A stretch of 17,171 nt of DNA. Source: a virus. The first letter of the stretch is position 1; each line of letters begins with the position of its first letter. Position numbers and translations under genes: made by a program. The DNA is taken from positions 1-17,171 of IMG/VR virus record IMGVR_UViG_3300012060_000014, one strand, 5' to 3'. The notes beneath the pieces were generated by a model. It worked only from the letters and a program-made list of their open reading frames with translations. It had not been told where the DNA came from and searched no databases. Positions 1-17,011 of this stretch are shown piece by piece.

Positions 1-123
1 TCCATCAAACACAATTTTACTCCACAATGTTTCACGTGAAACATTCTGGTAAAGTGGTAACGTGGTAATGTGCTAATTCGTTAAAGCACTTTAGTACGGT
101 GACGTGGTGGTGTGGTGACGTGA
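1..123. repeat. Left inverted terminal repeat (123 bp)
   Basis: I reverse-complemented 1-123 by hand and it matches 17049-17171 at every base. Identity stops at 124 (a) versus the complement of 17048 (g). It contains a perfect 20-bp palindrome AATGTTTCACGTGAAACATT (26-45) and four ACGTG cores. Confidence 0.97.
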
Positions 124-184
124 ATATGAATATCCTGTTAACAATTATGTAATAGAACATTAATGTTATGTCTATCGAAACATG

Positions 185-213
185 TTGCAAAATTTGTCGA
201 ATTATGGTACAAT
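185..213 (+). promoter_or_regulatory. Left-end early promoter (sigma-A type, extended -10)
   Basis: TTGCAA (185-190), a 17-nt spacer and TACAAT (208-213), with TG at 205-206 giving TGgTACAAT. It lies about 60 nt upstream of the first ORF and is nearly identical to the right-end promoter. Confidence 0.7.
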
Positions 214-273
214 AAAGAAGATAGGATATATGTTAATTAAAAACTAGACAAGTAGAAAGGGGTAAGGACACAC

Positions 274-486
274 ATGCATATTGCAGATCAGATTGAATAC
301 GTAAAAACAATGATTAAAAATGTAAGTGATGAGATTGGTTTTTCACAAGACAGGGAGGAAATATCACATTTAGCAGACGAAAAAGTCAGGCTAATATCTC
401 TATTGGTAAGTCTGGAAAAGCTTGCAAAAATCAATTCCTTAGTTGAAGCTTTTAACGCACAAAAAGTCACTCCGACGAGTCTTTGA
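274..486 (+). CDS. Hypothetical early protein (70 aa, predicted helical)
   Basis: First ORF after the promoter, with RBS AAAGGGG/AAGGA upstream of the ATG. No recognisable motifs. Its last codons overlap the 5' half of hammerhead copy 1. Confidence 0.7.
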   Translation: MHIADQIEYVKTMIKNVSDEIGFSQDREEISHLADEKVRLISLLVSLEKLAKINSLVEAFNAQKVTPTSL

Positions 487-525
487 AAATTAAGACGAAA
501 CTGCTCTTGATGAGCAGTAAGTGAC
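466..525 (+). ncRNA. Type I hammerhead ribozyme motif, core variant (position 4 is C)
   Basis: Stem I is GUCACU (466-471) / AGUGAC (520-525). The core is CCGACGA (472-478). Stem II is GUCUU/AAGAC (479-483 / 492-496) with loop UGAAAAUU. GAAA is at 497-500. Stem III is ACUGCUC/GAGCAGU (500-506 / 512-518). H17 is A519. It shares an exact 24-mer with the 6284-6341 copy. Confidence 0.65.
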
Positions 526-582
526 AGTGAGGTCACTAGTGGATAGATGGGATAAGCCATCACACGAAAGGAGCAGTGTATA

Positions 583-1065
583 ATGAAAAATTATATTGTA
601 ACAATTAAAGACGGTCTTGCATTAACAGCACATGAGGAAATGGCAGAATCCGTGAACACTTTAAAATTAAAGTACGGTGATAAATTCGTTGGCGCATCAT
701 TCATCGGACGGGCAACTTTGGAAGATAATATCAGGAAATTCGTAATTGAAAATTACGGTACTGAATACGTGCCAAGAGGCGAAACGATGGAAGAAATAAA
801 GACAGAAATTGAGCATTTGAAAAGCACGATAAAGCAGGTAAATGTTATTTATCGTGGCCAATCTGGTAATCTGCTAGATGCAACATTATCTACTAAAGTT
901 GACATTGAAGAGTGGTGTAAAAAATACAATTACACTTACGTAACAAAATACGGTTTACGCAATTTGTGTAATGAGGAACTTATCAACCTTGCCGTTCATA
1001 CCGTTTTGAATAAAGACAAAATTGCTATGCAGGCAGAAAACGAAAAGGAGAAAATATCATGTTAA
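583..1065 (+). CDS. Hypothetical early protein (160 aa)
   Basis: Strong RBS GAAAGGAG 9 nt upstream of the ATG. The stop overlaps the next start (ATGTTAA). No recognisable motifs. Confidence 0.8.
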   Translation: MKNYIVTIKDGLALTAHEEMAESVNTLKLKYGDKFVGASFIGRATLEDNIRKFVIENYGTEYVPRGETMEEIKTEIEHLKSTIKQVNVIYRGQSGNLLDATLSTKVDIEEWCKKYNYTYVTKYGLRNLCNEELINLAVHTVLNKDKIAMQAENEKEKISC

Positions 1066-1436
1066 TAGAATTCACATTAAAATCAACATTTTTAAATTTC
1101 AATGACCGTTATAACAAGATAGTAAAAGCAAGAAAAAAAGACGAATCTTCATATGTAACATTTTCCGCACCATATTCGGTCAAGACGGATAAAAAAACAT
1201 ATGAAAACAGGTACTTATCATGCATTAAGTTTTTTGATGATCCGGAAAAAGCAGAAGATTTTGGCATCCTACTCGATGAATCGGATGGAGTAAAATATGA
1301 TATATATGGAACAATAACAGATATTAATGAAAAGGGATATGTAAACGTAGTGGTTGATGAAATATGTCTAGTTGAAGAAAAAAAGGGCAGGGGAACCAAC
1401 ACAAGTAATAAAGGAAGAAACGGCAGAAATAAATAG
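1059..1436 (+). CDS. Hypothetical early protein (125 aa); possible ssDNA-binding protein by size, position and basic tail only
   Basis: RBS AAAAGGAG, translationally coupled to the upstream ORF and immediately upstream of the polymerase. The body looks beta-rich and the C-terminal tail is G/R/K/N-rich (KKGRGTNTSNKGRNGRNK). Its size is similar to phi29 p5. No diagnostic motif. Confidence 0.75.
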   Translation: MLIEFTLKSTFLNFNDRYNKIVKARKKDESSYVTFSAPYSVKTDKKTYENRYLSCIKFFDDPEKAEDFGILLDESDGVKYDIYGTITDINEKGYVNVVVDEICLVEEKKGRGTNTSNKGRNGRNK

Positions 1437-1472
1437 AACACAAAACATAAACGTAGAGAGGGGTTAACTTAA

Positions 1473-3764
1473 ATGTTAGAAATAATTAACAATAAAGAAA
1501 ATCTCTCTCTTTATTTAACCAAAAATTTGAGAGAAAAGAAACACATATTTTACGATATTGAAACGGTAACACTCAACCAAAAAACAAAAAAACCTAGTGA
1601 ACTTTTATCAATCGAATACATATGTGCAATTTCATATTTATATCAGGGAAAAGTAAATTATTTCTTCACACCGACATTGGAAAGTTTCATCAAATATCTG
1701 TACACAATAAAATCATCATGCAAGATAGACCTAACAGGTCAATTCATTTTTGGTTTCGACAATCATTTCCTCTTAAAATCCTTGACCGAACTGGGTTACA
1801 CTCCGGTCAACATGGAAAGAGATGCAATCAACGTACCATATTACACAAATTTAACCGCCGAAAATCCGGTCGAATGTTTAAGGGTGAAAAGAAAGTCCTC
1901 TCTCTCACTCAAATTCAAAATAAACGATATGGAAATTGAGACGGTTGACACAATTTTGAAGTCAAATTCCAAACTTGAAACGATGGGAAAGAAGCTACTC
2001 AATCTTAATTTGATTGATGAGGAATATCTTAAACTTGATGATTTTGATTATGAATTATACAATAAGAAAGAAAATTACACACTTTTCAAAGCGAAAGAAT
2101 ACGCAAGACAAATATACGATAATTTGAGTGAACGACAATTACAGTATTGCAGGAATGACGTTGTAATATTAGCCCTATACAAACATCATTACAAAGAATT
2201 ATACCCCAATTACGATTATTTCAAAATGACGTTATCACAAAATATAATGTCTGACTATGACACAACAAAATTATCAGTATTACAACTTAAAAACATTTTC
2301 TATAACGCAAAAGTTGAGAAACTTAGTGCAAGAGAAAAGCGGAAATATGAAACACACATAAAGTATTCTGACTATGTTTTTAACGGAATAAATCTATATC
2401 AATATTTGAAAGCGTCATATTCCGGTGGTCTTGTAATTTACAACGACAAACACATAGCGAAAATGATTAATAGATTAATGCGTTATGTGGATAGAAATAG
2501 TTCTTATCCTCACGTAATACACAAATTTCCAGTTCCAACTTTTTTAAAGGAATTCGGAAATGCAACAACACTGAACAACCTGAAAAAAGAAAACGAATTT
2601 TCCGTTTTTAGAATGACAATTGATGAATTCAATAATATGATTTTGGAAATTGATTCACACTTCATAAGATGTGCATTTGTAAAATATCTGTATAAGGGAA
2701 AAGATGATATTACGATAAATTCAAATAATCTGTTATTGTTGGAAGAGTTTGGAGTTGATTTGAGACGTTTTAAGTGCATGGACTACATAACATTCGAATG
2801 TAAACGTTTTGACACACACGAAAAGATTGCTGAATTTTACGCAATGAAACAACAATCAAAAAACAAAAATGAGATTGATGCGACCGATGTTGAAAATATA
2901 ATAGTATTAGATAATATCCTTGATAAATTAGATAGTACGGATGAGGAAATATATTTAGCAAAAGTGTCTATGAATGGACTTAGTGGCTTACCAGCTTTGA
3001 GATCAACTTTTCCTGTATATGTTTTAAATGAAAATAGTGAAATAGTTGGATATCAAACTGGATTCACAAACAAGGAAAGAAATTGCATATTTTCGATTTT
3101 TGTAACATCACATTCATTTTATGATTTGTTGCACCCACTTACGACATTAACAGCGGACGAAATTGATAATTATGTATATTACACAGATACTGATTCCCTC
3201 ATTGTTGATGATGTAATTTTTCACAAACTTGATTGTAAATTAGACGAAAACAATCTAGGTGCATGGGATGTTGAATATAATATCAAGAATTTATACATTG
3301 CAAATAATAAAATGTATTGTTTCCAGACAACCGAAAATAAAATTGTGGTAAAATCTTGTGGAGTTCGTAAAGATGCATTTGATACAAAAAACAAAACATT
3401 CGATGAGTTTGTAAAAGAATATTTAGCAATTGGTTGCAAACTTCCGAACCTCAAAAACGTGTTAAATAAACACGGAACTATCTCACTCTACAACGCATAT
3501 ACAGAAATCAAGGAACCACGTTACCGATTACCAGAACAAATTTTTAAGAAAACTAAGGAAGTACTTGACGAAATAAAAAGACAGGTCAGAAATTCACTCA
3601 CTATGGAAGAATATGAAGATACAATTTATATAGAAACATATCACGGCGCACTATCTTTGAGCGAATGCGTGGAAGAGGAAAACGAAACGGACGGAAAACA
3701 AGACATAGAAAAAATTGTAAAAACCTATAAGTTAGCAAAAATTTATATGAGAAAGGAAAAATAA
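1473..3764 (+). CDS. Family-B DNA polymerase, protein-primed (phi29 type)
   Basis: 763-aa ORF with RBS GAGAGGGG. The ordered motifs are ExoI FYDIETVT, ExoII FGFDNHFLL, ExoIII YCRNDVVIL, motif A YVDRNSSYP (DxxSLYP type), motif B KVSMNGLSG (Kx3NSxYG type), motif C YYTDTDS and the KxY region VVKSCG. A linear ITR-bounded genome implies protein priming. Confidence 0.95.
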   Translation: MLEIINNKENLSLYLTKNLREKKHIFYDIETVTLNQKTKKPSELLSIEYICAISYLYQGKVNYFFTPTLESFIKYLYTIKSSCKIDLTGQFIFGFDNHFLLKSLTELGYTPVNMERDAINVPYYTNLTAENPVECLRVKRKSSLSLKFKINDMEIETVDTILKSNSKLETMGKKLLNLNLIDEEYLKLDDFDYELYNKKENYTLFKAKEYARQIYDNLSERQLQYCRNDVVILALYKHHYKELYPNYDYFKMTLSQNIMSDYDTTKLSVLQLKNIFYNAKVEKLSAREKRKYETHIKYSDYVFNGINLYQYLKASYSGGLVIYNDKHIAKMINRLMRYVDRNSSYPHVIHKFPVPTFLKEFGNATTLNNLKKENEFSVFRMTIDEFNNMILEIDSHFIRCAFVKYLYKGKDDITINSNNLLLLEEFGVDLRRFKCMDYITFECKRFDTHEKIAEFYAMKQQSKNKNEIDATDVENIIVLDNILDKLDSTDEEIYLAKVSMNGLSGLPALRSTFPVYVLNENSEIVGYQTGFTNKERNCIFSIFVTSHSFYDLLHPLTTLTADEIDNYVYYTDTDSLIVDDVIFHKLDCKLDENNLGAWDVEYNIKNLYIANNKMYCFQTTENKIVVKSCGVRKDAFDTKNKTFDEFVKEYLAIGCKLPNLKNVLNKHGTISLYNAYTEIKEPRYRLPEQIFKKTKEVLDEIKRQVRNSLTMEEYEDTIYIETYHGALSLSECVEEENETDGKQDIEKIVKTYKLAKIYMRKEK

Positions 3765-3767
3765 AAA

Positions 3768-4169
3768 ATGGCATTAAATGAAATGCGTTCTAGGTCGAAA
3801 AAACCGCAAGATCAGGAAAGAGTAGAACAGGTAAAAAAGTATTACCGTAACAACACATTTTTAAATTTTGACAAAGCAACTCTTACACGGAATGAGGTTA
3901 CAAATCTGCTTAGTGAAAGAACAAAGAGTATGATTGATGATTTTGAAACGTTTCTCGATGTGCAAAGACATGAATCAAATATGTACATCAACGGCGCATC
4001 AAATTACAGTGAAAATTCTTTCATACATGATATTATGTCAAAAATGAATAAAATGTCATTACGAAAACAAATGCAATTCATGGAGAAAGCAAACAAACTA
4101 TTGAGAGAGGGTGGAATTAAAGGTGATCCGTACTCATGGCGTGCCGTAAAATATTCTGAATTCGGGTGA
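3768..4169 (+). CDS. Hypothetical protein (133 aa); weak terminal-protein candidate
   Basis: RBS AAAGGAAAA and ATG 4 nt after the polymerase stop. The N-terminus is basic (RSRSKKPQDQER...KKYYR) and Ser/Tyr residues lie near the C-terminus. No homology recognised. Confidence 0.75.
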   Translation: MALNEMRSRSKKPQDQERVEQVKKYYRNNTFLNFDKATLTRNEVTNLLSERTKSMIDDFETFLDVQRHESNMYINGASNYSENSFIHDIMSKMNKMSLRKQMQFMEKANKLLREGGIKGDPYSWRAVKYSEFG

Positions 4170-5392
4170 TAGATATGAAAGCTGGATTAAAAAACAAAAT
4201 TGACAAATGCATCAAAAAATACCGTGATTTACAGGATGAAAGATACAATAAATTCCTGTTATTAGACTATCTCACGGATGATGAAATTGACATAATGATG
4301 AGCATTACAAACCGGACAGACGGAAAAACATATTCGAACATCCTTATGCTACTTAGATTAAACGCTGAATTCGGTCTAACATTCGTTCTAATGTGTAGAC
4401 ATTTCACACTAAGAAAAGCATACTTAGCAACTGTTTTCGATATCGTAAACAGCGAACGCACTCACGATTCAAACCAACTCACAATTATGAACCGTGAGGA
4501 ATTTATCGAAATCGTGGGTAAAGGTGGTAAAACAGTTTGTTGCGTAACAGATCTTAATAGCGCAAGTGATTTGAAATATCGTGCAAATGAAATGCGTCAT
4601 TATGATTTAATTGTATATGATGAATTCATCGCACTTGAGCATGAATATTTATCACATGAAGTAGAATCCTTAAAGGTAATTTATGAAACTATGGATAGAG
4701 AATCAAACAAACGATTACTTGACAATCCGAAATTAATTTTTCTCGGAAACGCAATCAATTTTGCAAGTCCGGTAATCAGTTACTACAATATTTTTTCTGA
4801 TATCGAATTACAAGAAATCAACACAATTCAGGTTGTTGAAAAACTTACGGAAAACAACGACCACCTAAAAATAGCAATCGAATTACGCCGAAATGAAGAG
4901 GTAAACAAAACCAAAAATAGCAAACTTTTTAATTTAGGTGGAAACAACTATGCGCTGTCAGGAGAGTTCACAACGAATGATTATCTATTACATAACAACG
5001 TTGACAACATGGAATACATAATTTTAAAGATTGATAAAAAGTATTTGAAATGCTATTACAATTCAGTTCGGATTGTTTTGAACGTCCTTGATTATTGCGA
5101 TTCATACGGATACTGCAATAGCATTGCGGACATGAAAAAAGACGTGCATTACCTCAACGATAACTATTTTGATTCAGAACACATTCACAAAATGTATGAC
5201 CGTACAATCCTGTACGCAAACACATACACATTGCAATTCATTTCAAAATCAACTTACCTACAACAAATTTTGTATGAAGAAATCGTTGCAGAAATTATGT
5301 ACGATAAAAAGCAGATTAAAAAGATGATTGAACACAAGAATACAGACAAACGAATATTAGATATATTGAAACAATTTGAAAGTCCATTTTAA
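4166..5392 (+). CDS. DNA encapsidation (packaging) ATPase, phi29 gp16-like
   Basis: It is collinear with phi29 gp16 as I recall it. The matches are NRTDGKTYS vs GARGIGKSY (Walker A region), FVLMCRHF vs FIYVRRY, LIVYDEFI vs TIVFDEFI (Walker B) and LIFLGNAINFASPV vs CICLSNAVSVVNPY. The track start is GTG 4166, overlapping the upstream TGA. ATG 4175 is an equally plausible start. Confidence 0.88.
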   Translation: MIDMKAGLKNKIDKCIKKYRDLQDERYNKFLLLDYLTDDEIDIMMSITNRTDGKTYSNILMLLRLNAEFGLTFVLMCRHFTLRKAYLATVFDIVNSERTHDSNQLTIMNREEFIEIVGKGGKTVCCVTDLNSASDLKYRANEMRHYDLIVYDEFIALEHEYLSHEVESLKVIYETMDRESNKRLLDNPKLIFLGNAINFASPVISYYNIFSDIELQEINTIQVVEKLTENNDHLKIAIELRRNEEVNKTKNSKLFNLGGNNYALSGEFTTNDYLLHNNVDNMEYIILKIDKKYLKCYYNSVRIVLNVLDYCDSYGYCNSIADMKKDVHYLNDNYFDSEHIHKMYDRTILYANTYTLQFISKSTYLQQILYEEIVAEIMYDKKQIKKMIEHKNTDKRILDILKQFESPF

Positions 5393-5407
5393 AAAAAAAG
5401 AAAGGAA

Positions 5408-5593
5408 GTGAAAAAAAACATGATTGCTAAGAATGAACGTAAAATTATTATATGTCCAAAATGTAAAGGTGAGGGATTCAGGTTAGACAGAGTTAACGTT
5501 AATAATTCAATTGATTTACCGTGCAAATGCAAATATTGTTGTGGGAAAGGCAGAGTTATTAAACACACGGTTATCACACATACGATTGTTTAA
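5408..5593 (+). CDS. Small zinc-finger protein with two DnaJ-type CxxCxGxG motifs
   Basis: It carries CPKCKGEG and CKYCCGKG motifs plus an extra CKC. The track start is GTG 5408, directly abutting AGGAAG. ATG 5420 (MIAKNERK...) is the more likely start. Confidence 0.65.
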   Translation: MKKNMIAKNERKIIICPKCKGEGFRLDRVNVNNSIDLPCKCKYCCGKGRVIKHTVITHTIV

Positions 5594-5646
5594 GAAAAAA
5601 ACACAATTTAACTTCAAAAATTTGTCAGGAAAAATGCAGATTTCTC

Positions 5647-5675
5647 TTGACAATTTTTGTTATTCGTGGTAAAAT
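5647..5675 (+). promoter_or_regulatory. Internal promoter for the 5708-7184 cassette (consensus -35, extended -10)
   Basis: TTGACA (5647-5652), a 17-nt spacer and TAAAAT (5670-5675) preceded by TGg. The -35 lies in the right arm of an imperfect inverted repeat, CAAAAATTTGTCAG (5615-5628) / CTTGACAATTTTTG (5646-5659). Confidence 0.7.
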
Positions 5676-5707
5676 AAAAGAAAAAAGTTAATTTAGGGGG
5701 TAGCACT

Positions 5708-6013
5708 ATGACATACAAAAAGGTAGTTGAGGGAATCGCAAGAAATACAGTTGGTAAATTTATATTAGACAGGTTGGAACGTGGTTATTTTGATATTGAT
5801 AGCATAGAACTTACACAACCAATCGGCAAGGTTTTTGATGAAATGATATTTTTTCAAGTTAAAGTTCGCATTAACAAGTTTGATGATTTACTTGAAAGAG
5901 ATTATGCAATAGACGGAGCTATTTTCGACACTGGTAAAGGTACGGTAACATCAATTACTACACACGATGATAATTTCATTTATTCAGACACACTCAAAAA
6001 ATTTAAATTCTAA
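5708..6013 (+). CDS. Hypothetical protein (101 aa)
   Basis: RBS AGGGGG 7 nt upstream. It is the first gene after the internal promoter. No motifs recognised. Confidence 0.8.
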   Translation: MTYKKVVEGIARNTVGKFILDRLERGYFDIDSIELTQPIGKVFDEMIFFQVKVRINKFDDLLERDYAIDGAIFDTGKGTVTSITTHDDNFIYSDTLKKFKF

Positions 6014-6025
6014 GGAGATAGCAAG

Positions 6026-6283
6026 ATGAAAAATTTACTTAAAAGAATCCAAAATGAGGTAGTTGTAATAGAAGATTCATTAATGAGAAATGGAAAGCTG
6101 TTAGGAGATCAATCAATAACGGTCGCATTAGTTCTAACGGATGATGAAAAAGAATTGTTCAAAGAATGTCATTATTTTGAAAGTGAAAATTTTTGGTGGG
6201 AAATTACTGATAATGTTTTATATCTTACTTATTCCGGTGAAAATTTTTGGTGGGAAATGGAAAATATGATAACTTATTCATAA
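6026..6283 (+). CDS. Hypothetical acidic protein (85 aa) with duplicated ENFWWE motif
   Basis: RBS AAGGAG. It is rich in E and D. SENFWWEITDN and GENFWWEMENM are encoded by a repeated 21-mer, GTGAAAATTTTTGGTGGGAAA (6183-6203 and 6237-6257). Confidence 0.8.
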   Translation: MKNLLKRIQNEVVVIEDSLMRNGKLLGDQSITVALVLTDDEKELFKECHYFESENFWWEITDNVLYLTYSGENFWWEMENMITYS

Positions 6284-6341
6284 GTCACCCTGAGGAGTCT
6301 TTGAAAATTAAGACGAAAACCAGCATAGCTGGTTCGGTGTC
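6284..6341 (+). ncRNA. Type I hammerhead ribozyme motif (full consensus core)
   Basis: Stem I is GUCACC (6284-6289) / GGUGUC (6336-6341). CUGAGGA is at 6290-6296. Stem II is GUCUU/AAGAC (6297-6301 / 6310-6314) with loop UGAAAAUU. GAAA is at 6315-6318. Stem III is AACCAGC/GCUGGUU (6318-6324 / 6328-6334). H17 is C6335. All invariant positions are present in the correct order. Confidence 0.85.
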
Positions 6342-6368
6342 ATAAAAAATCTAAGGAGGAAAAACAAA

Positions 6369-6662
6369 ATGACAGACCAAACAAAAATCAAGGTTATCGA
6401 ATTATCAATGGATTTAAACAACGTAATAAACGAATCAGTAAAGACAGTAAAGGGCGAATATTTTCAAGGATTATCAACACTTAATGTTACTACAAATCTA
6501 TTCAAAGATGATGCTATCTCGATTTATCAGTTAATAAGTGAATACGCTACAATGACAACTTTGCTCTGTGAGCTAGGATTCATCGATAAAGAGTTATATG
6601 AGACTCAATGGCAGTTGATGGAAGACATTAGACAAATAGCAATGCATGATTTATTCCAATAA
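6369..6662 (+). CDS. Hypothetical protein (97 aa, acidic, predicted helical)
   Basis: RBS AAGGAGG 8 nt upstream. It is the first ORF on the predicted 3' cleavage product of the hammerhead. Confidence 0.8.
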   Translation: MTDQTKIKVIELSMDLNNVINESVKTVKGEYFQGLSTLNVTTNLFKDDAISIYQLISEYATMTTLLCELGFIDKELYETQWQLMEDIRQIAMHDLFQ

Positions 6663-6714
6663 ATAAAATCACACGCTGACCTAACGGCAAATACGGGGAG
6701 AAAGAGGTATTATT

Positions 6715-6963
6715 ATGAGTGAAACAAAACTAAACACAAGCGGAATTGAGACAGTAAAAATTGAAAAAGTCGGTTACATCTACAAGCTTTGGGATAAGGT
6801 AAATGAAATCGTATTTGAAATGAAAACGATGGAACGGCGTTCATTCAGAACTGGAAACTACATTTTGCTGGATTCCAGAAAAGTAAAATTTCAAATTGCA
6901 GTCAGCGTTGACCTCAACGAAATGAAATTTTTGGAAGAAAAGGGAAGTGAGGTAATCGAATGA
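6715..6963 (+). CDS. Hypothetical protein (82 aa)
   Basis: RBS GAAAGAGG upstream of the ATG. The stop overlaps the next start (ATGA). Confidence 0.75.
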   Translation: MSETKLNTSGIETVKIEKVGYIYKLWDKVNEIVFEMKTMERRSFRTGNYILLDSRKVKFQIAVSVDLNEMKFLEEKGSEVIE

Positions 6964-7184
6964 TAAGCAGATACAAACTAAGAGTATTTTTGAGTAATAT
7001 ACCAGTTGGACAGAGATTTTATATTGACGCAATAAATTTAACAAGTCAAGCAATCGTTTATCTTAGGGGTTGTATAAAAGAAGGTTTTATAATGCCAGTG
7101 GATTTTGAAAATAGAGTTAAAATCAAGGAATCCGTAGAATCAGGTGATACAATCTTACCACAAGGATATTACAAAAAAATTTAA
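6960..7184 (+). CDS. Hypothetical protein (74 aa)
   Basis: RBS GTGAGG, coupled by ATGA to the upstream ORF. It ends at the terminator hairpin. Confidence 0.7.
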   Translation: MISRYKLRVFLSNIPVGQRFYIDAINLTSQAIVYLRGCIKEGFIMPVDFENRVKIKESVESGDTILPQGYYKKI

Positions 7185-7206
7185 AGGGGGTTACCCCCCT
7201 TTTTTA
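7183..7206. terminator. Bidirectional rho-independent terminator between the convergent arms
   Basis: The sequence is AAA-GGGGG-UUAC-CCCCC-UUUUUU. A 5-bp all-GC stem (7186-7190 / 7195-7199) has a T run downstream on the + strand. On the - strand it is followed by UUUAAAUUUUUUU. It sits exactly between stop codons at 7182-7184 (+) and 7207-7209 (-). Confidence 0.8.
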
Positions 7207-8610
7207 TTACAAAATTCTCAAAAATCTCCAATTAAGTCTCTTAATACTATTAATGTAAGAGTCTAAATTTTCCTCAACCGTTCCGTAAGCCGTTCCCTTG
7301 CAGTGGATGAACGTGTTATTTTCTGACACTATCCCGACATGTGCATCACGTGCTTGCGGTGCTACTTCGGTTAAAATTAAGTCACCGGCTTTCAACTTTG
7401 ATTTGTTGGAATTGATTTCAGAATAACCACCACTTCCAGACGCAATAAGATTACCAGCAGTTCTCAAATTTCCAGTCCATGAACATATTTCCCCACCACT
7501 ATTATACAATTTTTTTTCTGTTATCATATAATAAAGCGTAACAACAAATGACGAACAATCGGCATAACCATCGGAAAACGAAAAACGGTCGGTATCTAGT
7601 TCCTGACTATAAGATAATTTTCCAACGTATGACCTAGCAAGATCAATATAATTTTGAACTTTCGTTCCGTCCGTTGGAATTGGTGGGGGGTCAGTCGTGT
7701 TTGGATTGTCGGGGGTCGGGGTGGAATCCTCTCCTTTAATCGGTTTTGAATTATTGTTTGCAACGTCTTGTTTATTTGGAGTCCAAATTCTAACTCCTTC
7801 TTTAAATAATTGCACTATCTGTCTAGTTCCGTTTGAATCAACTCCAATCAAATGATACACATTCCCCCGCAATTGCATTGATGTGATTGTCAATGCAGAA
7901 CTTGTGTTATCCTCAACTATTTCCTCATTAGTATCAGGGTCAGGAAGAACAGTATTTACGTTTTGATCTTCGCTTGGATTTCCGTCCGTTGGAATTTCAT
8001 AATTACCTTTTTTTTGTCCAAAGTCGGGGGGTGGTGATGAACCATCCCATTTATTTAAAATATCATAAACCTTATTCCACCTTGAAACATATCCGCCAAA
8101 AGTTCCATCGTTAAGAAGTGCCTGTCTGTATTGTGCAATCGTGGTACCTCTACCACCCCCACACGCATTTACAATTCTAGCAACGGTTCCGATGCCACCC
8201 AACCAACCGCCGGTTTCCGCAAAAATTGCAGTTTTCGGATCAGTAAAATTATGTGATTTCAACACGGCTGATTCATCCGTAATATCTCTATTCCATAATT
8301 CCGTTTGCAGTTCGACACTTTTCGCACTTTGCAATATTTTTGACACGTTGTTTGCTTCATCTATCGTAAATGTTTTGCTAGTCCACCCACCTGATTCCAT
8401 TTGAGATTTCATAGGGTTAACCGTGAAAAGTGAAGGGTTATCATCGTAAAACAATTTCAAAAGTTTGTAACTCCTTGAATGACTCCACTGTAAAAGTCCT
8501 ATTCCAACTCTATCCCCTAATTCGATTTGCGCCCAATTATAATTTACAGATTCCACACTTGCAAGAACATATAAGCAGTATTCTTTCCAAACGCTGTCAT
8601 ACATAGCCAT
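7207..8610 (-). CDS. Tail-associated peptidoglycan hydrolase (phi29 gp13 analogue): lysozyme-like N-domain plus NlpC/P60-type C-domain
   Basis: The N-terminal SVES...GIGLLQWS matches the ES...GxGLxQW pattern of phi29 gp13 (QSES...GFGLVQWT, from memory). Two P/T/D/N-rich linkers each contain IPTDG. The C-terminal ADCSSFV...HVGIV is a Cys-His peptidase signature. It is the last gene of the late arm. Confidence 0.8.
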   Translation of the reverse strand: MAMYDSVWKEYCLYVLASVESVNYNWAQIELGDRVGIGLLQWSHSRSYKLLKLFYDDNPSLFTVNPMKSQMESGGWTSKTFTIDEANNVSKILQSAKSVELQTELWNRDITDESAVLKSHNFTDPKTAIFAETGGWLGGIGTVARIVNACGGGRGTTIAQYRQALLNDGTFGGYVSRWNKVYDILNKWDGSSPPPDFGQKKGNYEIPTDGNPSEDQNVNTVLPDPDTNEEIVEDNTSSALTITSMQLRGNVYHLIGVDSNGTRQIVQLFKEGVRIWTPNKQDVANNNSKPIKGEDSTPTPDNPNTTDPPPIPTDGTKVQNYIDLARSYVGKLSYSQELDTDRFSFSDGYADCSSFVVTLYYMITEKKLYNSGGEICSWTGNLRTAGNLIASGSGGYSEINSNKSKLKAGDLILTEVAPQARDAHVGIVSENNTFIHCKGTAYGTVEENLDSYINSIKRLNWRFLRIL

Positions 8611-8621
8611 CTAAATTTACC

Positions 8622-10358
8622 TCACTTTATCATATTTTTCGTCAAGTCCTGCCCACTGACAGGCTGATTCCACAATCTAATTCCATTCTCAATTCTCAAT
8701 TTGAATATATCAGAAATCTTACTGTCAACGTCTGACATTTTAAAGTTGTGTAATTTTGCTTTGAGATAGTTCGCCCGACTCATTGTATTCACCTTAATAC
8801 CATTTCTCAAAAACGGAATCGAAAAACCAAAATTGTTATGGTACTGTCTCACACTTTCAAAAATTTCAGGTGCTACTTTTCTGAATTTCATTGTGATACC
8901 AAAAATTTCTTCTTTCTGCTGAAAATTATTTGAATGTGTCTGATTAGTGATAGTCGGAGTCGTTAACTTTGAGTCCTGAATTTCAGCATTTTTCGTGCGG
9001 TAATATTCATATTCATCCGTAATTTTTTCACCTAACGCCATCGGAGAAAAGTTAGAAATAACGCTTATCGTATCAAAAAGCCGACTTTGGATATCATCAC
9101 CACTTACGATATTTTTCACACGATTTGAAATAAGTTTGCTTTCCGTCAACTCTCTCTGATATGCCGACTTTGCAAGACCTAGATTATAATTATCAATCAA
9201 TACTGGTACATCGTCAAAATTATCAATGATTATTGCGTTGTTCATAAAGTCGCCGACTCCGACATTACCGGATGCATTTTCATTAATCTGATTTAACTTG
9301 TCAGCATAAATCACAACCTGATTATGATATCCCACACAAACACGACATTTGATTACAAGTCCGTCTGTATTTTCAATGTCCTCTAATTTAATTGTGCATT
9401 TCTGCCCGTCCCAAGTCTGCATTTCAATATAACAATACGGATATCGCATCAAGTGCTTTTCCCTTGTCAGATCACAACCGAAAATATTTGCAAGTTCAGC
9501 CCACGTATAACATAATTCCTTAATATCGTAATTCTTTGAAACGGAATTATTTTGAAATTGATAGACAGTGTAACTTGAAAACGCCGTTAATTGCGTTAAA
9601 GGTGTATCCAAAATGAAGTTGGCTGGTATTTGTGTTACTTTTATGAAATTCTGTACAATCCATGAATATTGTTGTAAATCTTTTGTCATTTTTGCAAAAT
9701 CATCTTGACGCATGATGTACAAACTCACAGGGGATGTTATTTTATTAAAAGTTCCGCCAAATGCGGAGGGCATTAGTGGTGCATCCACCGTGCCAAATGA
9801 TGATTTTCCACCTGACAGATCAACGGCAGATTGAATTAACACATAATACCAGTTAGTTTCATTGTCAAATCTGTACAATTTCTGTAAAATTGAATAATCG
9901 TTTGACGCACTGAAAAGAATATCATCATTATGTGTTAAATAACGAATGTTGCTATTGTATTCTGCAAGTGACAAATGCTGTCTATCTATTTGAGTGTTAA
10001 ATGCGGTTGAAAAATGAAAATCACCGGTTGCAAAAGTGACAAATGGGTCAATTATAAAATTGACTTCCGTAACGCCGTCATTGACGTATTGTGTTGTTAT
10101 GATATTAAAATAATAGATTTCATTTGCATTGTAAAATTTGCCGTAAGTGCATTTGGAAATTTCCTGATAATCATACTGAACTTTAATACTCTGTCTATCT
10201 GTGATGAAATTGAAATTCTTTTCAAATTTTATCTTTTCCGTGTTGGTCATATTATTGAAAAAATTATCTCTCTCTATTGCGTTTTCAAAGAAAATTGAGT
10301 TGTTCAAATCTTTGATGAAAAAATCTTTGTAAAGTTCAAATTTATATAAGTGTCTCAT
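8622..10358 (-). CDS. Tail knob / distal tail tube protein (phi29 gp9-like)
   Basis: 578 aa (gp9 is about 600 aa). MRYPYCYIEMQTWDG matches gp9 MMYPYCVTEITDFKG. The C-terminal IENGIRLWN matches gp9 FDNGITLWH. FNIITTQYVNDGVTEVNFIIDPF matches gp9 FYAFVTELEFKNSAVTYVHFEID. All gp9 strings are from memory. Confidence 0.88.
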   Translation of the reverse strand: MRHLYKFELYKDFFIKDLNNSIFFENAIERDNFFNNMTNTEKIKFEKNFNFITDRQSIKVQYDYQEISKCTYGKFYNANEIYYFNIITTQYVNDGVTEVNFIIDPFVTFATGDFHFSTAFNTQIDRQHLSLAEYNSNIRYLTHNDDILFSASNDYSILQKLYRFDNETNWYYVLIQSAVDLSGGKSSFGTVDAPLMPSAFGGTFNKITSPVSLYIMRQDDFAKMTKDLQQYSWIVQNFIKVTQIPANFILDTPLTQLTAFSSYTVYQFQNNSVSKNYDIKELCYTWAELANIFGCDLTREKHLMRYPYCYIEMQTWDGQKCTIKLEDIENTDGLVIKCRVCVGYHNQVVIYADKLNQINENASGNVGVGDFMNNAIIIDNFDDVPVLIDNYNLGLAKSAYQRELTESKLISNRVKNIVSGDDIQSRLFDTISVISNFSPMALGEKITDEYEYYRTKNAEIQDSKLTTPTITNQTHSNNFQQKEEIFGITMKFRKVAPEIFESVRQYHNNFGFSIPFLRNGIKVNTMSRANYLKAKLHNFKMSDVDSKISDIFKLRIENGIRLWNQPVSGQDLTKNMIK

Positions 10359-10381
10359 AGTTTTTTTCCTTTCTAAAATAA

Positions 10382-10407
10382 TTCAAGGAGAAATTAATCT
10401 CCTTGAA
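10382..10407 (-). terminator. Intra-operon hairpin (possible attenuator or partial terminator) after the second fibre gene
   Basis: Perfect 10-bp stem TTCAAGGAGA / TCTCCTTGAA (10382-10391 / 10398-10407) with a 6-nt loop. On the - strand RNA it is followed by AUUAUUUUAG, a weak U tract. Confidence 0.4.
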
Positions 10408-10410
10408 AAA

Positions 10411-11538
10411 TTATCCCTCTATTTCACCATAGACAGGAAGGGAAGGAAGTTTTCCAACCTCTGTCTGGACAACATAAAAACGTTTTCCGATATCCGCTGT
10501 CTTTGGTCTGTATTGTGACAATAGAGGTATATAAAAATCACCATTTTCTGTAACTTTTGCTGTTAAACATCCAAAATAAGTGTAATCAGTTATACCGACC
10601 TTTTTAGTATTTTTAACGTTCGCCCATTCCAAAATTATTGAAATTTCTGAATTGAGTATAGCACCAACGCCTGCAATTTCTGAATCGCCAACGTCTAAAT
10701 TAAACGGAACGACTACTTCTGAACGTTCCATAGCCTGTGTGGTTCCGCCGGTTGCATCCCCACTTGATTTTACCTCACCGCCGTAAATCGCAAGTCCTTT
10801 CCCACTTATTTCATTTGGACCAGTTAGATTGAAATTGTCAGAGTAATGTGCATGTAAAATCTGTATTTTGTCTGGGTCTAATAGTGCAAGTCCGTCTATC
10901 AAATAATTTACGTTTTTATAGTGATACATTTTATTACCAATTGCACTAAAAAGGTGATTAACTGGGTTGTTAGTTGATTGTCTGTAAAATTCTAAATTTG
11001 GAAATATTGCGCCGTCACCTTTAATAACTATATCCACAGACATATTGTCACCCATGAATATTATATTAATGTGACTTGACCATTTATTTTCGGTAGGTTT
11101 TTCGATAAAAACAACTTTTGTATATTTTTCGATATATAACGGCGAATTTGGTGCACTACCCCAATCAATATATGTCATAGCGTTTTTATCATCGTAATTA
11201 CCGTATTCAACGCAATTCACAAAAACCCGTCCGGTATCCTCACAATAATAGAGCATGTTTAATGTTGGATTTAAAATTTTGTCATAATCATCTTGTGTAA
11301 GAATTCTATGTGTGTTTACATTGAGAGACGTACCAGCTTTTAATCCGTTTACAGTTTCAACTTTGTTATTGATTCGCTTTAAAAAGTTGTCAATTTTTAC
11401 AAATGCATCCCCTTTTTCGGATGTAAAAAGATCGAGTTCGTCTGACATTAAAGGGGTTATTACATCGTTTTTGATTTCAATAACACCCTTATTCGCAAGG
11501 GGAACATCTTGCGTTCCCCTGATTATTTTTTTAGACAT
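10411..11538 (-). CDS. Tail fibre / receptor-binding protein 2 (375 aa)
   Basis: It lies between the endolysin and the tail knob. HRILTQDDYDKILNPTLNMLYYCED resembles the LTxxEYdxL...nTLYfi motif common in Gram-positive phage fibre proteins. The C-terminal half looks beta-rich. Confidence 0.55.
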   Translation of the reverse strand: MSKKIIRGTQDVPLANKGVIEIKNDVITPLMSDELDLFTSEKGDAFVKIDNFLKRINNKVETVNGLKAGTSLNVNTHRILTQDDYDKILNPTLNMLYYCEDTGRVFVNCVEYGNYDDKNAMTYIDWGSAPNSPLYIEKYTKVVFIEKPTENKWSSHINIIFMGDNMSVDIVIKGDGAIFPNLEFYRQSTNNPVNHLFSAIGNKMYHYKNVNYLIDGLALLDPDKIQILHAHYSDNFNLTGPNEISGKGLAIYGGEVKSSGDATGGTTQAMERSEVVVPFNLDVGDSEIAGVGAILNSEISIILEWANVKNTKKVGITDYTYFGCLTAKVTENGDFYIPLLSQYRPKTADIGKRFYVVQTEVGKLPSLPVYGEIEG

Positions 11539-11549
11539 ATTTTTCTCCT

Positions 11550-12326
11550 TTATCTAAGAAATATCTTTTGTCCGACATAAATCAGATTCGGATTTTTGAT
11601 ATTGTTAATAGAAACAATGTCGGATAATGACAAGTTGTATTTCTTTGCGATGGCAGACAACGTGTCACCTTTCACAACTGTGTGAAAACAGGGGTTGTAT
11701 GCAATTATGTTTAACACCTGACCAACGTTGATTAGATTCGGTTTTGTGATATTGTTTATTGAGATTATCTCATCAAGTTTCATGCCGTATCTTTTTGCAA
11801 TACCTGACAGCGTATCACCTTTCACAACTGTGTAATTTGCATACGTTGCCGTGTCAGGGGTGACAGCCGTTTCTTCGGCAGTATATCTCAAAATGTTCGT
11901 CCACGGACGGTTATAATATGACCGGATGCAGATTTCTCCACCTGTCTGATCACCGGGGATTCCCCCAGTAACGGTTCCTTTTTCGTTGATTGAAGCATGA
12001 ACTAAACGCCCATCACCTAACGACATTCCGGTATGATGGGTTACATTCAACAATACATCACCGTAATTTAACCCTGTTCCGGTTGCAAGATTGATCTTAC
12101 TTGTCACGTCCGTGAAACCTAATTTTTTGAATACACTCAACATGTTTCCTGTGTACGATGCACCGTTAGTTTTAACCGGAACGCCTGCATTTTGCCATGC
12201 TGTTATTACCAGAGACGAACAATCATAATCACCTTTTTCACCCCAACGATAAATTTGATCATATCCGTGTGAATTGTCGTTTGCGATTTGTAGCATAAAA
12301 TCCATTGCTTTCGTTATTTTACTCAT
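11550..12326 (-). CDS. Endolysin: NlpC/P60-superfamily (Amidase_5-like) catalytic domain plus two LysM repeats
   Basis: The N-terminal [24 protein letters not shown] resembles the YSMD...SYDCSS start of the Dp-1 Pal-type domain, with HHTGM further on. Two C-terminal LysM units are [17 protein letters not shown]...INVGQVLNI and [17 protein letters not shown]...IYVGQKIFL. The start overlaps the holin stop by 8 nt. Confidence 0.9.
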
Positions 12327-12720
12327 TCTGTTCTCCTTTCTGTAGAAACAAATCTTTTAATTTTTGCGGAACGGTTACACCGGAAGCGATTACATTTTCA
12401 ATTATTGATAGTCCTTCAGTTAAAATTAATGCCGTTATTACAGTGTTTCTCAAAACTGGTATGTTCGACAAAATTCCGAACACGTTCGCAAGGATTACAA
12501 GAACTAGGATTAATATTTTTTTAAGAATCCCCTTGAAAGCTTTGTCAGAACAAATCTTTGTACCGCTTTTACCACCTGTGATTCCAGCGGCAATTAATCC
12601 GGTTACAAAATCGAGTGCCATGCATGTTAATAACACAGACAGTGGCATGTCATAGTTTCCAAAAAGATAGAAAAGTAAGGAACATAATACACCACCTATA
12701 GAGCTTATTGCTTGTTTCAT
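12319..12720 (-). CDS. Holin (Phage_holin_4-like, multi-TMD)
   Basis: 133 aa with several hydrophobic segments. The family-typical pattern is [11 protein letters not shown]...KGILKK...[18 protein letters not shown], followed by a charged C-terminus. It lies directly upstream of the endolysin and overlaps it. Confidence 0.88.
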
Positions 12721-12732
12721 TTGTTACCCCCT

Positions 12733-13716
12733 TTATTTGAAAAATGTTGCTGCAATTGATAGCCAGCATGACGATGTTAATGTGTCAACCGGATAGCTTT
12801 CCCGAAACGGTCTGCCGTATCCGTCAATGTATCCTCTAAGTGCTGTTACATAATAGATGCCTTGTTTTGCTAGACTTACGTTTGAATTCCAAGAAGCACG
12901 TAAGTCTAAAGGGTAGACCGTCCAACTTCCGCTTGACGTTGCGGTTGTGTGAATGAAATCCGTGGGATTATTCATCCATTCGTAATCATTTATGAATCTA
13001 ACGCCATAAATTCTGGATTGCGGAACGTCCGATATATCAGAACTTCCGTGCATATCAATGTTTTTTAAATATGGCTGTTGTATAATTGTTCCGGTTGATG
13101 CAGCACTGCCAATTCTCAACATTGCACCGTTGTAAGTTTTTGCTAGTTTTACCTCTAGGTCATTTGATTCTGTGTAAAAACCGTTAAAAAATACAATTTC
13201 ATAATCTTTATTTTTTACTAAACGCTCGTATCCACCGCCGTTAATTGTATCGAATAGATTGTAAATATTTGTAATGTCATTTTTAATTTTTGATATGTCA
13301 TTTTCTATTTCAGATACTCTCGGTAATAAATCATATACATATAACGCCTTGTCAGAACCTTTTACTAATGCGTTTAAAATATCAGTTGAAATGTTAACAT
13401 CATGATAGACGTTTATGATATCATCCCATTCCTGCCAGTCACCTTCAATGCGTGGGGTTGTGGTGTCTGTTTTGTTAAACTTGATATCACGGTCTAACAG
13501 TTTGTTTATCATTTGCATGATCTTTTTGATTAATGCGTTCCATCTTGCTAGGAAATCATAGTAAGAGGGGGCGTTTGTGTTATAATCTGCTGAATCGTTG
13601 TACCACGGCATGTAAAAACGTTTACTTTTGTTTCTTGGAACATTGTGATTGTGTGGATGGTCAGGGTTGAAACAATTGTCTTTATCCTCAAATCTGAATG
13701 GTTCTTTGTTTGCCAT
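12733..13716 (-). CDS. Tail fibre / appendage protein 1 (327 aa)
   Basis: It occupies the position equivalent to phi29 gp12, after the lower collar. The N-terminal NTNAPSYYDFLARWNALI motif is typical of Gram-positive phage fibre N-termini (from memory). It also has a heptad-like central segment (EIENDISKIKNDITNIYNLF) and a beta-rich C-domain. Confidence 0.6.
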   Translation of the reverse strand: MANKEPFRFEDKDNCFNPDHPHNHNVPRNKSKRFYMPWYNDSADYNTNAPSYYDFLARWNALIKKIMQMINKLLDRDIKFNKTDTTTPRIEGDWQEWDDIINVYHDVNISTDILNALVKGSDKALYVYDLLPRVSEIENDISKIKNDITNIYNLFDTINGGGYERLVKNKDYEIVFFNGFYTESNDLEVKLAKTYNGAMLRIGSAASTGTIIQQPYLKNIDMHGSSDISDVPQSRIYGVRFINDYEWMNNPTDFIHTTATSSGSWTVYPLDLRASWNSNVSLAKQGIYYVTALRGYIDGYGRPFRESYPVDTLTSSCWLSIAATFFK

Positions 13717-13730
13717 TTGTTCCCCTTTCT

Positions 13731-14372
13731 CTAAAATATTTGCAGAAATAGCCGTTCTTCCATTTCATTGAAAATTGTTCGGTATAATCCAAGAGTTGAA
13801 TAGATATCCTCAATTTTTAAGTTGCTTTTCTTGCTTGTTGAATTGTTTTTGTTGATGGATTGATTCAATGCGACTGTGTTTTCGTCTGCATAGTTGAGGT
13901 TGTTATTACTCACGTCAAGATTGATTTCATCTTGCGGAGTTGTTGTTGACGCTGTCCTATTTTGGTTGTCGATTTGGGTTTTTCCGTCCGTGGTATCTGT
14001 GTTTGAATTTGATATTATTGCTTCAAAATTATCATAGATAAATTCTATCGCTTGTTTCTTTTCATACATGAATGCAAGTAATTGCAATTTAAATAATTCG
14101 ATTGTTTGAAACTTGATTTCATGGTAGAAAAAATTGAATAGGAATGTTGTCTTGAAAAAATTATCTAAGTCCTCAAATTCAAAATAGAAATTTTCAAAGA
14201 TACATTTTTTCATTACTTTTAAAAATTCCTTGTCATTTACAGTATCCTGTTTTATTAGACGAGTTATGAAGGCATCACTTGTGAAGCGCCCATTTTTGAA
14301 AAACTCGTCATAACCGTTATTGATTAACTCGTTTCGTAAATAATCGTGTATGGAAGTTGTGTACTTTGCCAT
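13731..14372 (-). CDS. Lower collar / head-tail connector protein (phi29 gp11 position)
   Basis: 213-aa ORF immediately downstream of the portal gene, with its start at the portal stop. Assigned by synteny only. Confidence 0.55.
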   Translation of the reverse strand: MAKYTTSIHDYLRNELINNGYDEFFKNGRFTSDAFITRLIKQDTVNDKEFLKVMKKCIFENFYFEFEDLDNFFKTTFLFNFFYHEIKFQTIELFKLQLLAFMYEKKQAIEFIYDNFEAIISNSNTDTTDGKTQIDNQNRTASTTTPQDEINLDVSNNNLNYADENTVALNQSINKNNSTSKKSNLKIEDIYSTLGLYRTIFNEMEERLFLQIF

Positions 14373-15304: not shown

Positions 15305-15308
15305 ATTA

Positions 15309-16463: not shown

Positions 16464-16478
16464 AGTTTTATCTCCTTT

Positions 16479-16742
16479 TTAAAAGTCCTGCAAAAGTTTT
16501 TCTAACTCTTCTGCTTCTGCATCGGTTACTGTTACTTCTGTTTCATTGTCCTTGTCTTTGTCATTGTCTTTGTCATTGTCTTTGTCATTGTCTTTGCCAG
16601 AGTCGTTTCCAGTCGTTTGCAATGACGTAATTATTTCAGATTGCTTTGTGACAGTTGTTTCTAGTTCTTTGTTTTTCGTTTCGAGTGCTGTCACTTTTTC
16701 ACTGACTTTTTTCATGTCAGCCATGAATTCCTGTAGTGTCAT
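16479..16742 (-). CDS. Scaffolding protein (87 aa from ATG 16742)
   Basis: It lies directly upstream of the capsid gene, in the phi29 gp7 position. It has a coiled-coil-like N-half, a (KDND)n repeat and an acidic C-terminus. ATG 16742 has RBS AGGGGG 8 nt upstream. The track start at 16781 is a GTG with no RBS. Confidence 0.7.
   Translation of the reverse strand: MTLQEFMADMKKVSEKVTALETKNKELETTVTKQSEIITSLQTTGNDSGKDNDKDNDKDNDKDKDNETEVTVTDAEAEELEKLLQDF
16544..16597. repeat. 12-bp tandem repeat inside the scaffold gene
   Basis: GTCATTGTCTTT occurs three times exactly (16560-16595), preceded by a degenerate unit. On the - strand it encodes GKDNDKDNDKDNDKDKDNE. Confidence 0.9.
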
Positions 16743-16788
16743 TTTTATCAACCCCCTAAATTTTATTTTCGCTGCTGCCACTGTAATA

Positions 16789-16935: not shown

Positions 16936-16982
16936 ATGTTCCACCCCCTTTCTTTATTATACATATAATTTATATCTAATTA

Positions 16983-17011
16983 ATTATAACATGATTCGAC
17001 AAAATTTGCAA
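16983..17011 (-). promoter_or_regulatory. Right-end promoter driving the - strand structural and lysis arm
   Basis: On the - strand: TTGCAA (17011-17006), a 17-nt spacer and TATAAT (16988-16983) preceded by TGt. It matches the left promoter at 25 of 29 positions. Confidence 0.7.

Follow-up and report, generated by a model that had tools for sequence, protein, structure and literature searches.

The viral DNA of IMG/VR record IMGVR_UViG_3300012060_000014, referred to below as the window (the whole stretch of 17,171 nucleotides, positions 1 to 17,171), carries a self-cleaving RNA motif at the end of its first early gene. Judged from its sequence, the segment 466–525 on the + strand is a genuine type I hammerhead ribozyme and a member by descent of a large phage subfamily. 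Within its conserved core, it departs from the consensus at a single position, where C473 takes the place of U4. We put at roughly 60% the probability that this RNA would cleave between A519 and A520 to a biologically meaningful extent and in this way process the early polycistronic mRNA.

Architecture of the hammerhead at 466–525

Every coordinate proposed in the initial annotation was checked against the sequence, and the stems, core, loops, G12–A14 and H17 all proved to be correctly placed. The type I architecture on the + strand is thereby confirmed, and 466–525 reads GUCACU-CCGACGA-GUCUU-UGAAAAUU-AAGAC-GAA-ACUGCUC-UUGAU-GAGCAGU-A-AGUGAC. The three helices follow in type I order with 6, 5 and 7 bp, and all 18 pairs are Watson–Crick.

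Stem I is formed by GUCACU (466–471) and AGUGAC (520–525), with the conserved flanking A465 before and A526 after it. The 5' core segment CCGACGA (472–478; C3 C4 G5 A6 C7 G8 A9) agrees with C3-U4-G5-A6-N7-G8-A9 at six of seven positions. The exception is position 4, where C473 stands in place of the consensus U, as the initial annotation had noticed. Stem II (479–496) pairs GUCUU (479–483) with AAGAC (492–496) from G10.1–C11.1 onwards, and is closed by loop II, UGAAAAUU (484–491). This loop is invariant in the family, and its UGA (484–486) is at the same time the stop codon of the upstream open reading frame (ORF). G12, A13 and A14 occupy 497–499. Stem III (500–518) consists of the A15.1–U16.1 pair (A500 and U518) and of CUGCUC (501–506) paired with GAGCAG (512–517), and is capped by UUGAU (507–511). 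H17 is A519, a non-G residue that completes a GUA triplet, and the hammerhead consensus places the predicted scissile bond between 519 and 520. Cleavage would leave a 2',3'-cyclic phosphate on A519 and a 5'-OH on A520.

Folded alone, the 60-mer takes exactly this structure, both as minimum free energy (MFE) fold and as centroid (−20.2 kcal/mol, z = −4.6), and none of 200 shuffled sequences folded as well.

Subfamily membership and covariation

A covariance model was built from 24 hammerheads of unrelated phage contigs, leaving out the sequences of the window and all members with the U4C change. With filters off, this model aligned the element at full length and scored 465–526 with 61.6 bits (E ~8.5e-17). 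A second copy in the window, 6283–6342 in the alignment, reached 61.4 bits (E ~1e-16), and the next-best match in the window only 10.9 bits. Family members range from 33 to 81 bits on the same model.

Both copies contain the 24-mer GAGTCTTTGAAAATTAAGACGAAA without any change, at 477–500 and at 6295–6318. These are its only two occurrences in the window, and none is expected from 200 shuffles. Outside the window, the 24-mer is present in at least 119 IMG/VR viral contigs and in at least 100 contigs of bacterial genomes, the latter mostly from gut Clostridia (Lachnospiraceae, Christensenellaceae, Oscillospiraceae). Family counts that derive from this 24-mer in IMG/VR rest on the matches listed, and these totals are lower bounds. 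The flanks of the fixed 24-mer form stems I and III, and their sequences are wholly different between loci. A first pass assigned 107 of 132 matches to type I hammerheads. When more loci were parsed again under stricter rules, 112 units resulted, and stem I has 5–6 bp in 107 of these. Most of the remaining matches are type III versions of the same module.

The subfamily, which is at home in phages and prophages mostly of gut Bacillota/Clostridia, is recognized by an open stem I of 5–6 bp, a stem II of 5 bp with the invariant loop UGAAAAUU, and a variable stem III hairpin, and 466–525 has each of these features. In an ungapped alignment of 24 independent members (A1), 96% of the cells are paired and 13 of 17 pairs show double changes. 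Shuffled alignments reached this covariation in 0 of 500 cases and shifted registers came nowhere near it, although the figures are somewhat inflated by the choice of pairable members. All three stems covary across the subfamily. The 5' flanking A is also shared, as the first column is A in 22 of 24 aligned members. With a relaxed pattern, the fixed loop was found on top of several stem II variants (GUCUU/AAGAC, GUCGU/ACGAC, GUCGC/GCGAC, GUAUC/GAUAC and others), and the variant at 479–496 is the commonest (76 of 125 pattern matches). The fixed loop II may serve as a tertiary-contact element. A full-text literature search for the loop II/stem II sequence gave no match, and the sequence is absent from the supplements of Perreault et al. 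2011.

Some loci carry modified forms of the module. L188 (~4180–4197) and L189 (~2402–2419) have the same stem II and loop II with an aberrant core (CCUUUGA ... GACG or GAAG), flanked by what look like stems I and III; they may be degenerate copies or represent a different junction. In L079, L125, L054 and L074, which are contigs of 100–250 kb, type III versions lie a few hundred nucleotides from Hatchet, RAGATH-6, -7, -7-assoc and -14 RNAs. These neighbourhoods are ribozyme-dense regions of large phages.

The Rfam models gave no match at gathering thresholds anywhere in the window. The hammerhead models, which the initial annotation had named as a check, called neither copy, as the gathering scores of RF00163, RF00008 and RF02275-7 (clan CL00010) were not reached. 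In E-value mode, Hammerhead_3 gave the copy at 466–525 22.1 bits in a wrong register, against a gathering score of 48.5. RAGATH-1-hammerhead (RF03152) gave 20.4 bits (E = 0.25; gathering score 56.3) and is the sole Rfam model that aligns 446–524 in the correct register. Type I topology is common to RAGATH-1 and 466–525, but RAGATH-1 possesses an additional hairpin on the 5' side and a stem II that is only minimal, and 466–525 is not a member. Consensus-core members of the subfamily in 20 other loci were likewise not flagged at Rfam gathering thresholds. The failure of the Rfam models is hence a matter of model coverage and not of the C4 change, and the subfamily seems under-covered by current Rfam models. 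The only hammerhead call in those 20 loci was a RAGATH-1 hammerhead elsewhere in L008.

Cytosine at core position 4

C4 is the commonest deviation from the core consensus in the subfamily. In an unbiased IMG/VR sample, it was found in 7 of 130 matches from outside the window, among the matches listed, which corresponds to about 5% of the subfamily. G5 and A6 vary in none of the 130 matches, and position 3 deviates in four. In a sample defined by stem II and loop II, G8, A9, G12, A13 and A14 were each kept in at least 152 of 154 matches; three loci, none of them a normal hammerhead, account for the exceptions. An A at core position 3, which would break the C3–G8 pair, was seen in L035 (14164–14181, ACGAAGA) and L059 (461–478, AUGACGA).

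A scan aimed at C4 recovered 14 IMG/VR contigs, and a metagenome scan at least 81 stretches. These reduce to 76 unique units, of which 66 keep their type I or type III stems intact and have a proper triplet at the cleavage site. We then set at least 39 C4 type I lineages against 129 U4 lineages. They did not differ in N7, H17, closing pairs or stem lengths, and none of these features provided a second-site signature of C4. Coding overlap was also considered as a driver of the U4C change and set aside, as 14 of 39 C4 lineages versus 27 of 129 U4 lineages have an ORF that extends into the core, a weak trend only.

Selection on C4 units could be followed in a clade of eight contigs from different samples. 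Within the ribozyme, 4 of 57 columns are variable, all of them in loop III, compared with 31 of 76 in the upstream and 13 of 32 in the downstream intergenic DNA, 24 of 100 in the upstream flanking gene and 21 of 90 in the downstream flanking gene. No other segment of the region is as conserved as the ribozyme in this clade. Furthermore, L093 and L107, both with C4, differ by a compensatory change in stem I. The conservation in the clade together with this compensation indicates that C4 is kept by selection in at least some lineages. We therefore favour the reading that C4 is a tolerated natural variant of the subfamily and does not in itself indicate decay. The frequency of C4, the likeness of its lineages to those with U4 and the purifying selection in at least one clade speak against inactivity as the general consequence of C4, an option that the initial annotation had raised for this copy.

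A predicted hairpin competing with stem I

Directly behind the predicted cleavage site lies a hairpin that the initial annotation did not contain. AGUGAC (520–525), the 3' strand of stem I, can pair on the + strand with GUCACU (532–537) around the loop AGUGAG, and this hairpin alone amounts to −7.2 kcal/mol. Its distal arm repeats the 5' strand of stem I without any change, including the U that matches the changed U–A pair next to the core. The hairpin begins with nucleotide 1 of the predicted 3' product. By its predicted stability, it would compete with the active fold before cleavage; afterwards it could make the reaction irreversible and shield the 5'-OH end from 5'-exonucleases. Consensus-core members, among them the L017 group, have competing product hairpins as well. 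Across the family, a 5'-terminal helix of at least 5 bp in the 3' product was found in 40 of 92 members versus 23.8 ± 3.5 in shuffles.

AGUG is present three times in 520–544 (AGUGAC, AGUGAG and, 3' of GUCACU, AGUGGA), which gives the 5' strand of stem I three alternative partners. In the MFE structure of 460–545, nucleotides 467–471 pair with 538–542 around the hairpin, and a four-way junction results. The rest of the 5' untranslated region of the next gene (538–582, + strand) comprises AGUGG (538–542) and a hairpin GAUGG/CCAUC (546–561), and the ribosome-binding site of this gene is GAAAGGAG (566–573, +).

Position between the early genes

The element is intercistronic and co-oriented with its neighbours. 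The first early ORF (274–486, +) encodes 70 amino acids of no known family, has the ribosome-binding site GAAAGGGG (255–262, +) and is also called as a gene in an identical Logan contig (L129); its protein gave no PHROG or Pfam match. The initial annotation described an overlap of the ribozyme with the last seven codons (KVTPTSL) and the stop codon of this ORF, and the sequence agrees: the ORF ends at +21 of the element, with the TGA (484–486) in loop II. The further suggestion that coding and RNA structure constrain the same bases did not hold up in this form, as the overlap is ordinary in the family and we found no evidence of dual constraint.

Overlap of the upstream ORF with the ribozyme occurs in 38 of 125 members (~30%). 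When the ends of upstream same-strand ORFs were placed on 136 type I units, 44 fell directly before stem I, 17 on the UGA of the CUGA core and 13 on the UGA of loop II, the stop that ORF 274–486 shares with these 13 other members. The next ORF starts after a median of 36 nt from the cut (interquartile range 23–45 nt); here the distance is 63 nt.

The module thus has built-in stops in two frames, through the UGA in the CUGA core and the UGA in loop II; a further UGA arises from U at N7 together with G8 and A9. Upstream ORF ends pile up on them (for example in L009, L013, L033, L078, L080, L099 and L150). C4 turns the core UGA into CGA, and the ORF stop shifts one codon later. The ribozyme dictates the short C-terminal tail of the upstream ORF product.

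L033 and similar small podophage contigs carry three units among their first four or five early genes, at most 1.3 kb from the genome end. This placement matches that of 466–525 and also fits the proposal of Perreault et al. that such elements process long transcripts.

The second copy at 6284–6341

The second hammerhead (6284–6341, +) lies between ORF 6026–6283 and ORF 6369–6662 and has the consensus core CUGAGGA and a GUC triplet, with the predicted cut at 6335/6336. The initial annotation had attributed the same architecture to both copies; the shared 24-mer and the scores of about 61.5 bits for each bear this out. A duplicated gene cassette as the source of the two copies was rejected since the flanking proteins are unrelated. 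The second copy has a rare G at N7 (2 of 132 family matches, itself being one of these) and a single U–U mismatch in stem I. Its fold reaches a z-score of only −2.1, and the 3' product that it would yield has no 5' hairpin.

The phage genome and its relatives

Perfect inverted terminal repeats of 123 bp (1–123 and 17049–17171) show that the window is a complete linear genome of about 17 kb of the protein-primed (phi29-like) type. Genes at 274–7184 lie on the + strand and genes at 7207–16944 on the − strand, with a bidirectional terminator (7183–7202) between the two arms. In the left arm, the first gene of the 3' product is 583–1065 (+), which encodes an orphan protein of 160 amino acids. Contiguous + strand ORFs run from position 583 to the protein-primed-type DNA polymerase B (PolB; 1473–3764, +) and the packaging ATPase/terminase (4166–5392, +). 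The placement in the initial annotation, within the + strand early block upstream of polymerase and ATPase and with the cut 63 nt before the ATG at 583, was correct.

A promoter-like site at 185–213 (+) combines TTGCAA, a spacer of 17 nt and TACAAT with TG (9 of 12 positions matched, extended −10). By its match to the consensus, it is probably the early promoter that drives the ribozyme-bearing transcript, and the ribozyme would then lie about 250–300 nt into this transcript, straight after the first gene. A near-identical pair, TTGCAA-aatttgtcgaat-...-TAYAAT, is present at 185–213 (+) and at ~16985–17013 (−), facing inward, which suggests that these are the paralogous promoters of the two arms. 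A second strong promoter-like site (5647–5675) precedes the block with the second hammerhead.

The polymerase shares only about 33% identity with its counterparts in small Streptococcus, Staphylococcus, Tetragenococcus and Enterococcus podophages. A comparison with 50,697 phage records gave no near DNA match to the window. IMG/VR, scanned by way of PolB, returned no close relatives, and exact-protein look-ups of both ORFs flanking the ribozyme gave no match. PolB homologues were recovered only from the identical contig L129 and from two relatives, L127 and L128, at 55–57% identity. In L127, a long near-perfect hairpin (363–429) extends across the start of the polymerase gene; microRNA precursor models matched it by shape only.

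Both terminal repeats contain the perfect 20-bp palindrome AATGTTTCACGTGAAACATT (26–45 and 17127–17146). Its 16-bp core recurs two and four times in the two closest relatives (L127 and L128) and is also present in other ~17-kb phage loci (L001, L089, L094, L101). In L033 (457–472) and L080 (13429–13444), it forms stem III of a hammerhead. The palindrome might be an operator or an origin-related site.

Discussion

The following account of how the site is transcribed, how and how fast it is cut, and what becomes of the products is inferred. The segment 466–525 would be transcribed within the early left-arm mRNA, probably from 185–213. Once stem I forms, the RNA should cut itself between A519 and A520 and so separate the first gene from the mRNA for the 160-residue protein, the polymerase and the packaging ATPase. 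The upstream product, with ORF 274–486, would end in the hairpins of stems II and III and in a cyclic phosphate. The 3' product would open with a 5'-OH, and its first 18 nt are predicted to refold as the hairpin 520–537. For ribosomes to reach their stop at 484–486, stem I, the core and half of stem II would have to come apart. C4, the competing hairpin and ribosome termination at 484–486 probably make cleavage slower or less complete here than at the second copy.

Several points weigh against cleavage to a meaningful extent. According to Perreault et al. (PMC3088659), U4C considerably reduces the activity in vitro. When an engineered type III hammerhead was subjected to deep mutational scanning, every single change in the CUGA turn left low co-transcriptional activity (PMC9901934). 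In the context of 465–545, the probability of the hairpin is ~0.9 and that of stem I ~0.03. Once 526–542 is transcribed, the hammerhead fold (−21.7 kcal/mol) is outweighed by hairpin folds of −23.1 and −25.6 kcal/mol; these are secondary-structure thermodynamics, and tertiary contacts lie outside the model. The family-wide enrichment of product hairpins is modest and inflated by relatedness among the loci. The promoter and the operon structure are consensus-level predictions only. Finally, L129, the only other copy of the phage, is 100% identical and thus offers no variation for gauging the conservation of 466–525, and L127 and L128 are without any hammerhead. The element is evidently dispensable in this lineage, and its absence from these two relatives means that the module is gained and lost sporadically.

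Taken together, these points could mean that the ribozyme is dead or dying. C4 and the competing hairpin would then abolish useful cleavage, the early mRNA would stay uncut at this site, and the relic would be left with no role beyond that of a structured intergenic spacer or of supplying the ORF with its stop codon. The poor cleavage of U4 mutants in engineered contexts, the low predicted occupancy of stem I, the nearest relatives without a hammerhead and the identical L129, which leaves no room for a selection test, are all compatible with decay. However, the stems at 466–525 are perfect, whereas the consensus-core second copy has a mismatch. Apart from C4, the core shows no frequent deviation and is invariant across the family, units with C4 are more conserved than their flanks in the eight-contig clade, and C4 and U4 lineages are otherwise alike. 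The product hairpins, too, accompany consensus-core members. Moreover, other core changes regarded as "lethal" do cleave in natural, tertiary-stabilized hammerheads. In a viroid variant, U4C lowers the activity in vitro "considerably" and leaves enough in vivo for infectivity, again according to Perreault et al. (PMC3088659). We hence regard a decayed ribozyme as unlikely, though to be taken seriously, and retain cleavage of the early mRNA as the preferred reading.

Cleavage could also be attenuated or conditional. In that case, C4, the copy of stem I in the hairpin and termination at 484–486 would determine how much of the early mRNA is cut and how much stays uncut, with Mg2+, the passage of ribosomes along gene 1 or pH, which would act by protonating C4, as inputs, and C4 would mark a functionally distinct subclass kept by selection in phages of gut Clostridia. 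Three independent brakes do coincide at 466–525, and the mimic arm agrees with stem I in every base, the U for the changed closing pair among them. The hairpin 520–537 is the strongest sequence argument for slow or tunable cutting because it is predicted to out-compete stem I. The selection on C4 in some clades suggests that it is at least harmless, and a tuned hammerhead with a variant core has been proposed for the haloviruses HF1 and HF2 (Perreault et al., PMC3088659). On the other side, N7, H17, stem lengths and ORF overlap are not significantly different between C4 and U4 members, and U4 members, too, commonly have product hairpins and upstream ORFs that stop within the ribozyme. A protonated C replacing U in the U-turn is our own idea only. 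Both the conditional switch as such and a selected C4 subclass in gut-Clostridia phages appear quite improbable; the estimate for the switch overlaps with that for meaningful cleavage.

Modelled on viroids and retrozymes, the near-identical stem I of both copies allows a joint function to be envisaged. Cuts at 519/520 and 6335/6336 would free a 5.8-kb RNA, on which a chimeric hammerhead re-forms and ligates the ends to a circle. The 5' strands of stem I are GUCACU and GUCACC, so that AGUGAC of the first copy could pair with the strand of the second at five of six positions, and circular products of clustered phage hammerheads were raised as a possibility by Perreault et al. (PMC3088659). The same authors sought spliced or circular products and found none (PMC3088659). 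The chimeric stem I would carry a C–A mismatch at pair 1.1–2.1, since the pair adjoining the core is U–A at 466–525 and C–G at the second copy; this compensatory difference argues for selection on pairing in cis. Furthermore, the strong promoter-like site at 5647–5675 splits the interval, and most multi-copy loci of the family have unrelated stem I sequences. Formation of a circle is thus very improbable.

That there is no RNA element at all, and that the 24-mer is a protein-binding site in DNA (it is identical in very different phages) or the region an intrinsic terminator (a terminator-like hairpin is flagged on the − strand, 518–500), is hardly tenable: strand-specific covariation in all three stems effectively refutes it, family units are consistently co-oriented with their flanking ORFs, the + strand has no U-run 3' of stem III, and the − strand has no genes here, its signal being the complement of GACGAAA plus stem III.

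If the preferred reading of early mRNA processing is correct, the early left-arm transcript would cleave itself behind the first gene and once more at 6335/6336, which affects the annotation and expression of the early genes. Beyond this phage, the Rfam models miss a large subfamily whose loop II is fixed and whose stem I is short and open. A recurrent C under selection at the "invariant" U4 bears on how strict the U-turn is in tertiary-stabilized hammerheads. The built-in stops and the frequent mimic of stem I suggest ways in which self-cleavage may be tied to translation and to the stability of the mRNA. Should cleavage be conditional after all, 466–537 would be an RNA device with three inputs (core chemistry, alternative pairing and ribosome traffic) and no plain cutter. 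These family-level observations are possibly useful leads; they do not overturn current understanding.

The early mRNA of phage T7 is cut between its cistrons by RNase III into separate mRNAs, whose new ends are protected by hairpins. The outcome predicted here may be similar in function only, as one early polycistronic transcript would be split into mRNAs with hairpin-protected ends. In T7, a protein enzyme of the host cuts double-stranded sites, whereas here the RNA is predicted to cut itself and to leave cyclic-phosphate and 5'-OH ends. Another parallel is glmS. Self-cleavage of glmS in Bacillota reportedly generates an mRNA with a 5'-OH end, and RNase J1 is said to decide its fate (work attributed to Collins and colleagues, 2007). 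There, the 5'-OH end triggers decay of the downstream mRNA; here, by analogy, the hairpin 520–537 should block entry, and stabilization would be predicted.

Hammerheads that punctuate phage operons have been known since 2011. Perreault et al. 2011 described clustered prophage hammerheads, showed cleavage in vitro at all sites of three clusters and proposed that long phage transcripts are processed into gene- or operon-length mRNAs (PMC3088659); in a 2023 paper, the biological reason for the association of hammerheads with phages was still called unknown. Like the element at 466–525, those hammerheads are small, lie between operon genes, often occur several at a time and are co-oriented with the genes (PMC3088659). 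The subfamily described here differs in that, with its open stem I of 5–6 bp and its fixed loop, it remains below every Rfam hammerhead gathering score. HHphage of HF1 and HF2 also has a non-consensus core and lies in an early polycistronic transcript of a linear double-stranded DNA virus, upstream of an early gene. A 5' end has been mapped within 3 nt of its cleavage site, and a tuned activity that depends on conditions was proposed for it. It differs by a two-nucleotide insertion near C3, high-salt dependence, an archaeal host and unrelated peripheral elements (PMC3088659). A natural U4C hammerhead is already known from a viroid (Ambros and Flores 1998, as cited in PMC3088659). It carries the same core substitution, but is of type III and serves genome monomerization in a circular RNA replicon, whereas 466–525 is an mRNA element of a DNA phage. 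Compared with these systems, the hammerhead at 466–525 is real but fairly ordinary, with one rare, recurrent core change.

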